Source: Escherichia coli
GTDB taxonomy: Bacteria > Pseudomonadota > Gammaproteobacteria > Enterobacterales > Enterobacteriaceae
Strand: one strand, 5' to 3'
DNA length: 64,000 nt
NCBI RefSeq assembly: GCF_003334405.1
Contig: NZ_QOWM01000003.1
The first letter of the stretch is position 1, and each line of letters opens with the position of its first letter. Below are positions 2,256 to 7,244 of this stretch, piece after piece. A program made the translations under genes and the position numbers. The notes below the pieces were generated by a model. The model had not been told where the DNA came from. It ran no database searches and saw only the letters and a program-made list of their open reading frames with translations.

Positions 2256-2366
2256 ATGCGAAAGTTCAAAATTATTATTGAAACGGGAATAGCTGGTGGA
2301 GATTTTGAGGATGTATTCGAAGTGGACGATGACGCAACACCTGAGGAAATTCATGACGGAGCATAA
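2256..2366 (+). CDS. small acidic hypothetical protein (36 aa)
   Basis: ATG preceded by AGGAGG (2227-2232) and a GC hairpin with GAAA loop (2233-2248). Below the ORF-track length cut-off. Confidence 0.25.
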   Translation: MRKFKIIIETGIAGGDFEDVFEVDDDATPEEIHDGA

Positions 2367-2603
2367 GAAATTTTCTTTAACTACTGCAATTACTCATACC
2401 ACGAAATAAAAGACGATGAGGAAGAACAAAGTGGCTGATTTTTGTTCAGCTAAATATAACATCAGTTTTGAAGAGCGGGATGAACTATTAATGGACTATG
2501 GTGAGTTACGCGGTGGAAGTGCTGCTGATGTCGAATCCTAGCGTGATGACTATGAAGCGGGAAAAACTCCGGTCGAAGCATATTGTGATGAGTGGGGCGA
2601 TGA

Positions 2604-2891
2604 ATGAGCGAGATTAATTATCAGGAAGGGCATGAAACGGCGGGGCAAGCAAAACCAGTGGCATGGCGATATCGCTACGTGAAAAAAGGCGTTACGGACT
2701 TTCAGGGGAAGTAGTGGTCTGGTGACTGGAAATATGTACCGAAAAAAGAGGATTGTAACGACAGGCCGAACTATCAAATTCAGGCCTTATTCACTGCCTC
2801 ACCAGTCCCAGTTACATCAGAAGAACTGGTTAAAGCTGTGCACTTTTATGAACAACTAAAACGCGAAAATCCACCAACATCCGGCAACTAG
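2604..2891 (+). pseudogene. hypothetical protein ORF interrupted by an in-frame TAG at 2712-2714
   Basis: Same reading frame is protein-like on both sides of the TAG (MSEINYQEGHETAGQAKPVAWRYRYVKKGVTDFQGK / WSGDWKYVPKKEDCNDRPNYQIQALFTASPVPVTSEELVKAVHFYEQLKRENPPTSGN). Confidence 0.35.
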
Positions 2892-3145
2892 ATTAATGGA
2901 TTAACTATGTCGGTTAAACGACCAGCCAACTGAAAAAGCGGAAACCTGATTACAGGTTGCCAGATAAGGCAATGAGCTACCTGGCGCGGAACGGACTGAT
3001 AAGTATGGGGAATGTTTTACGATGAACCTTTAGACTAAAGAGTTTGTAACGCTATGTAAGTGATTTTTTCTGGTTTAGATATTTATATGTCCGGCCAAAT
3101 TGAGGTGTGTTTAAATGTAATTGCACATTGATTGTAGGAGGAATA

Positions 3146-3325
3146 ATGAAAAACGCATTGCAGTTTTTGTTTGTTGCGTTCTGGTTGTTCGCATCATGTA
3201 TGCCCATCATCTTCACAGCAAGGTATATGGAAAAAGTTGATGTTTTGATATTAATATTTGGATATATAAATGCCCTTTTTTTAGGGGTGTTCATGGCGGT
3301 CATGTGCATTGAATACTGGCGGTAA
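3146..3325 (+). CDS. small hydrophobic membrane protein (59 aa, two predicted TM helices)
   Basis: ATG at 3146 with consensus AGGAGG 5 nt upstream. Sequence MKNALQFLFVAFWLFASCMPIIFTARYMEKVDVLILIFGYINALFLGVFMAVMCIEYWR. Sits in an AT-rich stretch. Confidence 0.45.
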   Translation: MKNALQFLFVAFWLFASCMPIIFTARYMEKVDVLILIFGYINALFLGVFMAVMCIEYWR

Positions 3326-3559
3326 ATACAGCGAACTCCATTGGTTTAGTTGGATATTTACTGTGCTGGACAAAAACGGTTTGCGGGGAAATCTTAGTTA
3401 AGTAGAATGACTGCGGGTGCTTGAGGCTATCTGCCTCGGGCATGGACACCAACGGCAGATAGAGAAAAGCCCCAGTTAACATTACGCGTCCTGCAAGACG
3501 CTTAACATTAATCTGAGGCCAATTTCATGCTAGACACATGTAGGTTAGCCTCTTACGTG

Positions 3560-5200
3560 CCGAAAGGCACGGAGAAGCAGGCTATTGTTAACACCAAGCT
3601 GTAATGTCCCCTTTGAACCATTCTAAAATGTCCCCAGACAATTCTCTGGGGGATTTTTCATGATCAAAGAGACTGTTACGATGAGTCATAAGGAACTCCA
3701 CCGACTTCAGATTATTCAGGAACAAGCTGCGGCACGCATTGGCATTTCTATTCGGCAGGTTAAACGTCTGGTGCAACGGTATAGAAATGAAGGGCCTTCT
3801 GGTCTGGTTTCCCACCGACGTGGAAAGCGTCCTAATAATTCCTTTTCTACTGAATTCAGAGCAACAGTAATTTCACTCCTCAAAGGCCGTTACGCTGATT
3901 TTGGACCTACGTTTGCGTGCGAAAAATTGCGCGAGATACACGGTTTATCTTTATCCGTTGAAACTCTCAGAAAGTGGATGATAGAAGAGGGGTTATGGCG
4001 TGAACGCCGTCGTAAAATTGCCCGTATATATCAACGCCGCATGCGACGACCATCTTACGGTGAACTGATCCAGATTGATGGCTCACCTCATGACTGGTTT
4101 GAAAATCGAGGCCCCAGATGTACACTGATCGTTTTCATTGATGATGCCACCAGTGCGTTGATGGCGTTGCGTTTTGTGCCTGCTGAAACAACCCGGGCTT
4201 ACATGGAAACCCTCCGGGGTTACCTTAATGATCATGGCGTACCGCTCGCTCTCTACTCTGATAGACACAGTATATTCAGGGTAAATAACCCAGAGCGGGA
4301 AGGTGAGCTGACCCAGTTCACTCGTGCGATAAAGACACTGGGCATCGAGCCAATCCATGCCAACAGCCCGCAGGCAAAAGGGCGGGTAGAGCGCGCCAAT
4401 CAGACACTACAGGACAGGCTGGTCAAAGAAATGCGGCTTCAGAATATCAGTGATATTGAAACAGCAAATGCATGGTTGCCGACCTTTATTGAAGCCTATA
4501 ACAACCGGTTCGCTACGTCGCCTCGTACTACTGATAATGCTCATCTTGATGTGCACCATTCTGAAGAGGAACTGGGTTATATCTTCAGCCTACAGGCGAA
4601 GCGCGTTCTGTCTAAAAATCTCACTTTCCAGTACAAAAGCAGTGCGTTTCAGGTACGCAGTGAGGGCCGGGGATATCGACTTAGGCATTCGGTTGTTACT
4701 GTATGCGAGAACTTTGACGGTGAAATTAACGTTCTGTATGACGGGAAAGCGCTGGGCTGGGAAAAGTATGTTGATGGCCCGGAGCCTATACCACTGGATG
4801 ATGAAAAGAGTGTCCATGAACGAGTGGATAATGCCCGTATTGATTTACGCTCAAAATACTATGTTAAACCTAAAGCTGACCATCCCTGGCTTACGCGCCG
4901 AACGCAAAGTCATCAGCAAGTTAAGCCCCCGAAGTTACCTAAAAAGAAGCCTGATCCCGATAAAAAAGATTGAAACCAAGATCGATTCGGTTGAGTGCAT
5001 ATCCATTCATAGGGTAGATTCTTAAGTCGCGTTTCTGGTGTTCATTTTCGGGTGGTTTGTTACTTGTTTTACCGGGGATATGCCAGAAACGCGCTGAGTC
5101 AGTCTGGGCGGTGCGCGTAATGAGGCGTTATGGTAAATAGCCTATGCTAATGTCCGCTAAGAGCAAGAAGCGGAAGTTGGCAGTTTTGTGGACTGTCCCC
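3560..5200 (+). mobile_element. insertion sequence carrying the DDE transposase; ends not resolved
   Basis: Single transposase ORF flanked by non-coding sequence. I could not find clean terminal inverted repeats or a target-site duplication by eye, so boundaries are approximate. Confidence 0.45.
3660..4973 (+). CDS. DDE transposase with N-terminal HTH and rve/integrase-core domain (ISNCY/IS1202-like or IS481-like)
   Basis: 437 aa. N-terminal HTH (IGISIRQVKRLVQRY), then D (QIDGSPHDW), D (LYSDRHS) and E (RVERANQT) in integrase-core spacing. Basic C-terminal tail. Confidence 0.8.
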   Translation: MIKETVTMSHKELHRLQIIQEQAAARIGISIRQVKRLVQRYRNEGPSGLVSHRRGKRPNNSFSTEFRATVISLLKGRYADFGPTFACEKLREIHGLSLSVETLRKWMIEEGLWRERRRKIARIYQRRMRRPSYGELIQIDGSPHDWFENRGPRCTLIVFIDDATSALMALRFVPAETTRAYMETLRGYLNDHGVPLALYSDRHSIFRVNNPEREGELTQFTRAIKTLGIEPIHANSPQAKGRVERANQTLQDRLVKEMRLQNISDIETANAWLPTFIEAYNNRFATSPRTTDNAHLDVHHSEEELGYIFSLQAKRVLSKNLTFQYKSSAFQVRSEGRGYRLRHSVVTVCENFDGEINVLYDGKALGWEKYVDGPEPIPLDDEKSVHERVDNARIDLRSKYYVKPKADHPWLTRRTQSHQQVKPPKLPKKKPDPDKKD

Positions 5201-5409
5201 ACAAAAGTGACTACAGAAATAGTTGCAATTCATAATTGATCATGGGTTGTCAGTTAAACTCGTGGCGATTTAAATAGACTAATTGGGAGTGCGTCCATTA
5301 CTTATATCTTGTAATGTTAACTATCAGAAATGATACAAAGATAATATGTCTTTAAAGAAAAGGCTGATGGCGAAAAGTGGCCCGATGAGGGCCACAATAC
5401 GGCTGTCAC

Positions 5410-5742
5410 TTAGACGTAAATATCAATGGTGCCAGCGGTATTTGTATCGTCTTTTTTCTCTTCTTTTTTATCAGGCTGAACTGTCGCGTCTTCATTCTTT
5501 TTCTCTGCCTGCTGCCTTAACAACTGCTCCAGTTGAGCCCAGAGGCTTTCAATTTGCTTCTGTACCAATGCAGCCATTTCTTTTTTCTGCTGTGTCGTCA
5601 TCCCCTCTTCCGATGAGATTTTCCCAAGCTTTTCAGTCAGCACCTGAATTTGTCTTGTGATTTTGGCTATTTCTGATGTTCCTTCCGGGGCGGAGTTGTT
5701 TGAAATAACGGTTGAGGTATTTCCCTGAATTGTGACAGACAT
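5410..5742 (-). CDS. flxA: FlxA-like protein
   Basis: 110-aa protein recognised as Qin-prophage FlxA; AAGGAG RBS; sigma28-type promoter upstream. Confidence 0.85.
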   Translation of the reverse strand: MSVTIQGNTSTVISNNSAPEGTSEIAKITRQIQVLTEKLGKISSEEGMTTQQKKEMAALVQKQIESLWAQLEQLLRQQAEKKNEDATVQPDKKEEKKDDTNTAGTIDIYV

Positions 5743-5765
5743 AGATTTCTCCTTTTAAAAAAGCA

Positions 5766-5792
5766 CTATCGGCATGCACAAAAAAATCTTTA
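5766..5792 (-). promoter_or_regulatory. sigma28 (FliA) class-3 promoter of flxA
   Basis: On the minus strand TAAAGATT-N11-GCCGATAG, matching consensus TAAAGTTT-N11-GCCGATAA, about 25 nt upstream of the flxA start. Confidence 0.6.
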
Positions 5793-5944
5793 ATCGTATT
5801 TCTTGTGTCATTAATTGTTTGATGTTCAGATTGTTTTCCTCGCGGGCTGGCGCGCCTCAGAAAGTAAAGCTTGTTGACAGGGGTAAACGTTCGGCAATAA
5901 TTTTCTGCCGCATGCGGGTGTTGCATAAAACGTGTTACGTTCCT

Positions 5945-6250
5945 TTATCGACAGGTCAGGTCACCGCTCACCCGCCGACGAGAAAGCAACACTGACATGC
6001 TAAAGCAAAAAATAGATGAATAAGTTGAGTTGTGCATATGTAGCCTGACCGTCACAAAGTATATGGTGTCTGTACCAGTAAGATGATGGCCGGACTCTTT
6101 AAAAACGAGCTGACCTGCACAATACAGGATGGACTTAGCAATGGCTGCTCCTGGCACAAAGCGGACAGTGATCACCGTTCTTACGACTACTTTCTGACTT
6201 CCTTCGTGACTTGCCCTAAGCATGTTGTAGTGCGATACTTGTAATGACAT
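5945..6250 (-). CDS. ydfV: YdfV-like hypothetical protein
   Basis: 101-aa ORF positioned between flxA and relB as in Qin. Its 5' end lies over the relBE operator on the opposite strand, so coding status is uncertain. Confidence 0.5.
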   Translation of the reverse strand: MSLQVSHYNMLRASHEGSQKVVVRTVITVRFVPGAAIAKSILYCAGQLVFKESGHHLTGTDTIYFVTVRLHMHNSTYSSIFCFSMSVLLSRRRVSGDLTCR

Positions 6251-6266
6251 TTGTAATTACAAGAGG
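6236..6266 (+). promoter_or_regulatory. relBE operator/promoter (relO-like TTGTAAT repeats)
   Basis: TTGTAATGACATTTGTAATTACAAG with a TTGTAATTACAA palindrome immediately upstream of relB. Confidence 0.55.
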
Positions 6267-6274
6267 TGTAAGAC

Positions 6275-6514
6275 ATGGGTAGCATTAACCTGCGTATTGA
6301 CGATGAACTTAAAGCGCGTTCTTACGCCGCGCTTGAAAAAATGGGTGTAACTCCTTCTGAAGCGCTTCGTCTCATGCTCGAGTATATCGCTGACAATGAA
6401 CGCTTGCCGTTCAAACAGACACTCCTGAGTGATGAAGATGCTGAACTTGTGGAGATAGTGAAAGAACGGCTTCGTAATCCTAAGCCAGTACGTGTGACGC
6501 TGGATGAACTCTGA
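6275..6514 (+). CDS. relB: RelB antitoxin
   Basis: 79 aa, recognised as RelB; stop overlaps relE start (ATGA coupling). Confidence 0.9.
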   Translation: MGSINLRIDDELKARSYAALEKMGVTPSEALRLMLEYIADNERLPFKQTLLSDEDAELVEIVKERLRNPKPVRVTLDEL

Positions 6515-6801
6515 TGGCGTATTTTCTGGATTTTGACGAGCGGGCACTAAAGGAATGGCGAAAGCTGGGCTCGACGGTACGTGAACAGTTGAAAAAGAAG
6601 CTGGTTGAAGTACTTGAGTCACCCCGGATTGAAGCAAACAAGCTCCGTGGTATGCCTGATTGTTACAAGATTAAGCTCCGGTCTTCAGGCTATCGCCTTG
6701 TATACCAGGTTATAGACGAGAAAGTTGTCGTTTTCGTGATTTCTGTTGGGAAAAGAGAACGCTCGGAAGTATATAGCGAGGCGGTCAAACGCATTCTCTG
6801 A
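6514..6801 (+). CDS. relE: RelE mRNA interferase toxin
   Basis: 95 aa, recognised as RelE. Confidence 0.9.
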   Translation: MAYFLDFDERALKEWRKLGSTVREQLKKKLVEVLESPRIEANKLRGMPDCYKIKLRSSGYRLVYQVIDEKVVVFVISVGKRERSEVYSEAVKRIL

Positions 6802-6872
6802 ACCAAAGCATGACATCTCTGTTTCGCACCGAAGGTGACACTTCTGCTTTGCGTTGACAGGAGAAGCAGGCT

Positions 6873-7028
6873 ATGAAGCAGCAAAAGGCGATGTTAATCG
6901 CCCTGATCGTCATCTGTTTAACCGTCATAGTGACGGCACTGGTAACGAGGAAAGACCTCTGCGAGGTACGAATCCGAACCGGCCAGACGGAGGTCGCTGT
7001 CTTCACAGCTTACGAACCTGAGGAGTAA
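6873..7028 (+). CDS. hokD: Hok-family small membrane toxin
   Basis: 51 aa MKQQKAMLIALIVICLTVIVTALVTRKDLCEVRIRTGQTEVAVFTAYEPEE; below ORF-track cut-off, found by hand translation downstream of relE. Confidence 0.8.
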   Translation: MKQQKAMLIALIVICLTVIVTALVTRKDLCEVRIRTGQTEVAVFTAYEPEE

Positions 7029-7244
7029 GAGACCCGGCGGGGGAGAAATCCCTCGCCACCTCTGATGTGGCAGGCATCCTCAACGCACCCGCACTTAACC
7101 CGCTTCGGCGGGTTTTTGTTTTTATTTTCAACGCGTTTGAAGTTCTGGACGGTGCCGGAATAGAATCAAAAATACTTAAGTAGCGCGCAGGGATAAGAGG
7201 GATGGTCCCTTAAAGGGGAGAGCTAATTATCCGGAAGGATTCTG

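Follow-up and report, generated by a model that had tools for sequence, protein, structure and literature searches.

Does a 59-codon open reading frame (ORF) in an AT-rich patch of an Escherichia coli prophage encode a protein, and if so, what kind of protein is it? The frame runs on the plus strand of a 64,000-nucleotide stretch of DNA (the window) from an ATG at position 3146 to a TAA at 3323-3325, and its product would be MKNALQFLFVAFWLFASCMPIIFTARYMEKVDVLILIFGYINALFLGVFMAVMCIEYWR. The initial annotation, which had only the letters of the window to go by, placed the frame at precisely these coordinates (3146-3325). It also credited the frame with a ribosome binding site at ideal spacing, an AT-rich setting in a prophage and two predicted transmembrane (TM) helices, and offered type I toxins, superinfection-exclusion factors and holin-like proteins as candidates for what it might encode.

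The ORF, its surroundings and its distribution

The Shine-Dalgarno (SD) sequence AGGAGG can be read directly at 3136-3141 of the plus strand, where it is separated from the ATG by the 4 nt AATA. The usual optimum for this spacing is 5-9 nt. The ribosome binding site is therefore present as claimed, but its spacing is not ideal: the spacer is usable and slightly short. The SD is not invariant: 6 of 27 haplotypes of the lineage to which the window belongs (type A) have AGGGGG instead, and only a weak AGGGA precedes the frame in a second, more distant lineage (type B, discussed below). The AT-rich island is real; GC content is 0.347 across 3001-3300 and ~0.45-0.52 on either side, and the plus strand is T-rich. 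Chance would produce an AGGAGG with an ATG and 59 or more open codons behind it 0.25 times per composition-matched shuffled window. The signal in the single sequence is for that reason suggestive, and it is the comparative evidence that makes the frame more than a chance occurrence. This expectation also counts in favor of the first alternative that has to be weighed, which is that there is no functional gene here: a T-rich open frame, hydrophobic by composition, may be hitch-hiking in a young segment of prophage.

The window is a Qin-type lambdoid prophage, its gene order being that of Qin, so that the prophage context first assigned to the frame holds. The genes dicB, dicA and dicC, a YdaT-like gene, a replication gene, DUF977, a methyltransferase and decayed small genes precede the ORF; the ISNCY transposase, flxA, ydfV, relB, relE, hokD, rem, ydfU and Q follow it. 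The ORF has the orientation of the rightward early operon and lies ~6-8 kb upstream of Q (ydfT), and upstream of the lysis genes, in a slot of variable content that has the replication/nin-like genes on one side and the hok/sok module on the other. It would thus be accessory cargo of the early region. The upstream genes at 2256-3025 (one DUF7167-like, one hypothetical) are pseudogenes in the window, with a frameshift and an internal stop, and are intact in phage vB_EcoS-640R1; ~44 nt at 2896-2938 of the window are absent from related loci. In at least 8 complete genomes an IS1 element is inserted ~95 nt upstream of the ORF (in locus L092, from strain ETEC4089, it occupies ~450-1220, which corresponds to window position ~3050), and these insertions, together with several truncated protein alleles, point to the AT-rich patch as a hot spot for insertions. 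Elsewhere in the prophage, the Rfam cspA thermoregulator model matches 10432-10824 with 159 bits; this is presumably the leader of a prophage cold-shock gene (the cspB/cspF region of Qin).

The ORF is conserved outside this strain. Of 5426 complete E. coli genomes, 1570 contain the 361 nt around it, with no copy below 95% identity; type B is found in 1043 more, and three sequenced phages carry the ORF, which is thus not confined to prophage relics. K-12 MG1655 has lost it through a deletion running from ydfX to ydfW, genes that are merely 22 nt apart there (MG1655 1647323-1647346). Lost along with the ORF were the replication genes, the hok leader and the greater part of the ISNCY transposase; the 'ydfW' of MG1655 is the in-frame C-terminal end of a 437-aa transposase ORF that is whole in the window (3660-4973). 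Its deletion from K-12 is probably the reason that the gene has neither a name nor a study devoted to it. A full-text literature search with the peptide sequences found nothing.

Annotation pipelines have passed the ORF over. In the genomes matched, no PGAP/RefSeq annotation lies under it in either type, a fact that favors the non-gene reading, and the protein database entries that do exist, from E. coli and Shigella, are labeled only 'hypothetical' or 'membrane protein'. Three phage records (PV340562, ON470612 and ON470619) instead call a CDS, 'hornerin' or hypothetical, on the opposite strand: an antisense ORF of 85 aa at 3052-3309 (minus strand; reverse-complement frame 1). Two stops interrupt that frame in the type B lineage, so the antisense CDS is probably spurious; the correction to be made in these records is that the antisense frame was called in place of the ORF.

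No relatives have been found beyond E. coli and Shigella, apart from stray contigs that resemble E. coli DNA, and confinement to one species also speaks for the absence of a functional gene. The ORF region is present, at 97-100% protein identity, in contig JAIJJM010000167.1 of a 'Collinsella sp.' metagenome-assembled genome (MAG), and again in a Klebsiella oxytoca record (NZ_CP069920.1), a linear 'plasmid' of 9.5 kb. Both records look like E. coli prophage DNA that got there by contamination, mis-binning or recent transfer.

Truncated alleles of the ORF exist. Alleles frameshifted in the run C3T7G4 are common in short-read and metagenome protein sets; among complete genomes, the T8 form of the T7 run occurs in at most 3 of 1557 and the T6 form in 0 of 1557. 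Since frameshift alleles are nearly absent from complete genomes, they are probably sequencing errors, and phase variation at this run is rejected on the same ground.

Two lineages and the evidence for coding

The decisive comparison is with type B, a homologue that was found by tblastn (MRKILMYLCISIWIVISCVPIILTSEYLTEASIMALMFGHANALCIGVFISIIYIECWR, 59 aa). Types A and B are 41% identical in amino acid sequence and 59% identical in nucleotide sequence; they align without gaps and share their start and stop positions. Type B is found in 1043 of the 5426 complete genomes, that of Nissle 1917 among them, in a prophage scar, 2.3 kb long, that separates ttcA from uspF (copies at 4001-4180 of L085, an E. 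coli KE48 'plasmid' sequence that is really chromosomal DNA, and at 3652-3831 of L093, from Nissle 1917). The annotated neighbors in the scar, an integrase fragment, a DUF1627 fragment and a metal ABC permease, are all pseudogenes; that the frame has stayed open among them argues against a frame of no function, as does the existence of so divergent a lineage with the same start, stop and length and no indels.

The way in which the two lineages differ points in the same direction. The numbers of identical first, second and third codon positions are 34, 42 and 28 of 59, respectively: second positions are the most conserved and third positions the least. In the ORF frame dN is 0.45 and dS 2.3, for a dN/dS (omega) of ~0.19, a value that comes from a single pairwise comparison with saturated dS, because only two lineages exist. 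The other five frames have omega values between 0.46 and 1.4 and contain stops in one or both lineages. The sequences flanking the ORF can be aligned between A and B with indels, and the ORF with none. When neutral substitution was simulated at the observed divergence, the frame remained open in 2.8% of trials, and the open frame, start and stop were all retained in 0.25% (P = 0.0025). That probability is reached before amino acid identity is considered; only 0.6% of the survivors had at least 24 identical residues, which is about the observed number.

Variation within the lineages is harder to read. The type A population set consists of 84 related loci and the window, and comprises 27 flank haplotypes (in all, 85 type A and 4 type B copies of the locus were extracted). 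The ORF is its least polymorphic segment, with 2.8% of columns variable compared with 23% upstream and 18.7% in the hok leader. It has five polymorphisms, A17V, V31I, I37M, Y40H and L44I, which are mostly conservative and all nonsynonymous, with 0 synonymous changes. These are what a frame without function might show, and they are more readily reconciled with relaxed constraint or a recent sweep than with strong purifying selection, as far as five polymorphic sites can tell, a number that leaves a dN/dS test within type A underpowered. In type B, 13 substitutions separate two sub-lineages over 881 nt, and all of them lie outside the ORF.

On this comparative evidence the ORF is very probably coding, and it is unlikely that it is an open frame of no function carried along by its prophage. 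It would then be an uncharacterised protein-coding gene of Qin-type lambdoid prophages in E. coli and Shigella.

Transcription signals and the split hokD/sok locus

How the ORF would be expressed bears on what it might be. No sigma-70 promoter on either strand passes a consensus scan of 2400-3900, which is one more point in favor of the non-gene reading, and from 3325 to the hok promoter a consensus scan of the plus strand finds no terminator. An extended -10 motif, TGnTTAAAT, at 3108-3116 (TGnTTAACT in type B) was considered and rejected as a promoter element: it is weak, its position -11 is T rather than A, and the promoter scan is negative. No promoter or terminator of its own having been detected, the ORF is probably translated from the early rightward transcript by way of its strong SD.

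These features also bear on the suggestion that the ORF encodes a type I toxin, that is, a small membrane-depolarising peptide held in check by an antisense RNA. The product is small, very hydrophobic and prophage-borne, it is preceded by a strong SD, and a genuine type I locus lies next door (below), so that the region evidently tolerates such genes. Nevertheless, consensus scans turn up neither a promoter-like nor a conserved terminator-like site from which an antisense RNA could be made: the lone terminator-like hairpin of the minus strand (2958-2943), the one candidate for the end of such an RNA, is not conserved in related loci and was discarded. No inverted repeat or antisense complementarity common to types A and B was found. 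The mRNA of the ORF folds no better than its shuffled versions (z = 0.02), and no Rfam match overlaps it, the sok/hok-leader match at 3415-3586 lying outside. Silenced type I toxin mRNAs are the opposite case to this one, in which a consensus SD lies exposed and no structure occludes it. Two TM helices in 59 aa are atypical as well; most of the known type I toxins are peptides of 19-52 aa with one helix. With promoter, terminator, antisense partner and unusual fold all lacking in these scans, the ORF is very unlikely to be a type I toxin gene.

A role in lysis, as holin, antiholin or another lysis-timing protein, is a further reading; holin-like proteins were among the candidates first proposed. 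A two-TM phage protein of this size has the dimensions and predicted topology of class II holins. Against this stand the position of the ORF, which is in the early region upstream of Q (ydfT) when the lysis cassette is downstream of Q; its C-terminus, ...CIEYWR, which is not the charged cytoplasmic tail of holins; and the lack of a match to any holin family in Pfam or PHROGs. Because the ORF belongs to the early operon and not to the lysis cassette, a lysis protein is the least probable of the readings considered here.

The genuine type I locus, which the initial annotation had missed, is hok/sok, and it starts ~90 nt downstream of the ORF. In the window it is in two pieces. Its 5' half (hok mRNA leader, sok region and the mok ATG at 3528) occupies 3415-3585 of the plus strand (Rfam RF01794, 104 bits, E = 2.8e-23). 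It is preceded by a putative hok promoter, TTGCGG-16 nt-TAGAAT, read from the sequence at 3381-3408 (plus strand), and the left edge of the hok/sok module falls at ~3373-3403. The hokD coding sequence is at 6873-7028 (plus strand), 3.3 kb from the promoter, leader and sok that belong to it. When aligned to the intact locus of phage vB_EcoS-640R1, the window locus is seen to be cut at 3585, and homology to intact hok loci jumps from 3585 to 6859. Just downstream of hokD, at 7037-7118, there is a sub-threshold Rfam match to isrK (25 bits, E = 0.049) that overlaps the hok 3' region/terminator.

What separates the two halves is a transposon of the IS1202/ISNCY type, 3274 bp long (3586-6859, plus strand), with its transposase at 3660-4973 (ISNCY_2, 456 bits) and the passenger genes flxA, ydfV, relB and relE. 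The 15 bp GGAGAAGCAGGCTAT stand on both sides of it as a direct repeat without mismatch (3571-3585 and 6860-6874); its ends are TGT...ACA, with 26-bp terminal inverted repeats that match at 19 of 26 positions, and it has subterminal repeats. A long target duplication, TGT...ACA ends and inverted repeats are the hallmarks of the long-duplication group of the IS1202 family (PMC10132070). The transposon junction is present in 779 genomes, at one site only, and ~2960 complete E. coli genomes run straight from the leader into hokD. Since relB and relE ride as passengers, the relBE(-hokD) operon of E. coli has the look of cargo carried by a transposon. The integration of relBE into hokD has been noted before, at least as Ramisetty and Santhosh 2016 are cited in PMC6379469; no description of the transposon's anatomy at hokD came to light in a literature search that was not exhaustive.

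Is the ORF functionally tied to this neighbor, for example as a membrane protein that modulates Hok or protects against it? The analogy would be with the small membrane immunity proteins that adjoin pore-forming bacteriocins; Hok is not known to have a protein antidote, a point against the idea. The spacing lends the notion some appeal. The hok leader starts 92-93 nt past the ORF stop in the window and in all 80 related loci that reach far enough, and an intact hok follows the ORF in 45 of the 84 related loci as well as in phage vB_EcoS-640R1. The type B ORF too is followed by a remnant of hok, a decayed 3' fragment ~80% identical to hokD, so that the linkage of ORF and hok predates the split between A and B.

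The remaining evidence runs the other way. Eighty phage genomes carry a HokD/HokW-like gene, and the ORF is present in 3 of them and absent from 77. The boundary of the hok module (~3395) leaves the ORF out: in three hok-bearing phages that lack the ORF, mEp460, Rac-SA53 and PPompW, homology to the window does not set in before 3373, 3395 or 3403, at the hok promoter, and other cargo occupies the position of the ORF (in PPompW, the adhesin Paa/AdfO). The type B ORF is intact in 1043 genomes with hok decayed to a fragment, and the type A ORF is intact with hok whole or split. From these sequence comparisons, the ORF is probably not part of the hok system, and a protein that acts on Hok would be an improbable identity for its product. 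That the ORF is a real gene for an inner-membrane hairpin protein, and one that is independent of hok, is the likely state of affairs.

The predicted protein and its relation to described systems

The two TM helices predicted at the outset are borne out, in the sense that hydropathy gives two hydrophobic segments and AlphaFold two helices. Kyte-Doolittle averages over 19-residue windows have two peaks, of 2.1 (residues ~4-25) and 2.4 (residues ~31-55). The AlphaFold2 model of type A is a helical hairpin with helices at residues 2-27 and 30-58 (mean pLDDT 73). The type A protein may accordingly be divided into TM1 (residues ~4-25), a turn (25-32), TM2 (~31-55) and a conserved C-terminus, IE(Y/C)WR. 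A T-rich strand yields hydrophobic codons by composition, yet the two-peak profile is kept between types A and B, and this argues further against a frame that is hydrophobic by accident.

Type B has three Lys/Arg residues at its termini and none in the turn (the distribution in type A is ambiguous); both termini are therefore probably cytoplasmic. The 59-residue hairpin would insert into the inner membrane with its two ends in the cytoplasm and a turn of 6-8 residues in the periplasm. The residues that are invariant between A and B cluster in the membrane: W13, S17, C18, P20, I21, I22 and T24 in helix 1, and F38, G39, N42, A43, L44, G47, V48 and F49 in helix 2. At the C-terminus I55, E56, W58 and R59 are invariant. 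Small and polar intramembrane residues typically mediate helix-helix packing, and the conserved Ser, Cys, Pro and Thr of helix 1 and Gly, Asn and Gly of helix 2 might dictate a specific packing of the helices. The conservation of such residues in both lineages makes oligomerisation, or a partner that is itself a membrane protein, the most likely mode of action.

The protein has no counterpart in the collections that were searched. For type A, Pfam-A yields no family even at E <= 10; for type B there is no significant Pfam match, with DUF4212 appearing only at E = 0.08. PHROGs and PADLOC return 0 families for both types, NCBIfam (scanned with type A) returns none, and neither type matches a PDB sequence. 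A Foldseek search of AFDB50 recovers only the family itself. The same is true of phmmer against 1.84 billion representative proteins, and of a word-indexed search, run once with a single sequence and once with an A+B profile, both of which retrieve types A and B and their broken alleles only. A peptide-pattern scan of 100,044 species-representative genomes has one match, the E. coli-like contig of the 'Collinsella' MAG mentioned above. Thus the initial impression that the product belongs neither with Hok, Ldr and TisB nor among the known holins stands, there being no Pfam, PHROG, NCBIfam or PADLOC match at lax thresholds. Judged by sequence, this is a family of small phage membrane proteins without homology to any described family.

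The best overall explanation of the locus, to which we give somewhat better than an even chance, is a genuine prophage gene, carried as accessory cargo, whose product is an inner-membrane hairpin. Such a gene must be dispensable, since MG1655 has deleted it and truncated alleles exist, and this counts to some extent against it. A more specific suggestion, made by analogy with other small phage membrane proteins, is that the protein has an accessory role directed at the cell envelope, such as blocking the entry of a superinfecting phage or serving in the takeover of the host; this can be offered only tentatively, as nothing links the ORF to exclusion over any other role in the membrane. More speculative still is the proposal that the E. 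coli-restricted A/B family represents phage membrane mini-proteins of a new kind, each directed at a specific partner: either Hok, which it would modulate or confer immunity to at the protein level, or incoming phage, whose injection it would block as an exclusion protein. The Hok-modulating and injection-blocking versions are compatible with the ancient linkage of ORF and hok and with the conserved polar residues in the membrane; the proposal is nevertheless a long shot. Were its Hok version true, a layer of protein would be added to a system that is thought to be controlled by RNA only.

If the ORF is expressed, it is a gene of about half of all complete E. coli genomes (29% with type A and 19% with type B, overlap not subtracted), with Nissle 1917 (type B), ATCC 8739 (type A), ST131 and Shigella among its carriers. 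Control over phage entry, the integrity of the membrane or host transporters is a common role of small prophage membrane proteins, and the ORF is a cheap and testable candidate for a function of this sort. The practical value of the gene is modest.

Four groups of described proteins invite comparison. Hok/Gef toxins are ~50 aa long; they have one TM helix, at the N-terminus, and a tail in the periplasm that contains Cys. The ORF product is, like them, small, hydrophobic and prophage-borne, and it adjoins hok (in the window, hokD/sok) in both lineages. It differs in having two TM helices where Hok has one, and in lacking a Hok_Gef profile match, an overlapping mok-like frame, a sok-like antisense RNA and a fold-back mRNA. 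GhoT/OrtT, at 57 aa, is of nearly the same length and has the same predicted two-helix architecture; the ORF differs from it in having no Pfam family match and no adjacent antitoxin gene. Class II holins such as S21 share with the ORF product its approximate size, its two TM helices and its lambdoid phage background. In contrast to them, the ORF is located upstream of Q and has no charged C-terminal tail, no dual-start motif and no holin profile match.

T4 Imm and HK97 gp15 exemplify the fourth group, the small inner-membrane superinfection-exclusion proteins of phages. Profile scans (Pfam, PHROGs and PADLOC) do not connect the ORF with these proteins, and it resides in an early rightward operon, with no promoter of its own detected, rather than being a moron expressed in the lysogen. 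Of the usual features of a phage moron, a promoter and terminator of its own were not seen in the consensus scan. The other two are present: the base composition of the ORF is atypical (GC 0.35 compared with ~0.45-0.52), and it is present or missing as a unit, three hok-bearing phages without it carrying other cargo in its place. What the ORF does share with T4 Imm- and HK97 gp15-like exclusion proteins is a very small product, predicted to span the inner membrane with two helices, and the character of non-essential (pro)phage cargo whose base composition sets it apart from its surroundings.
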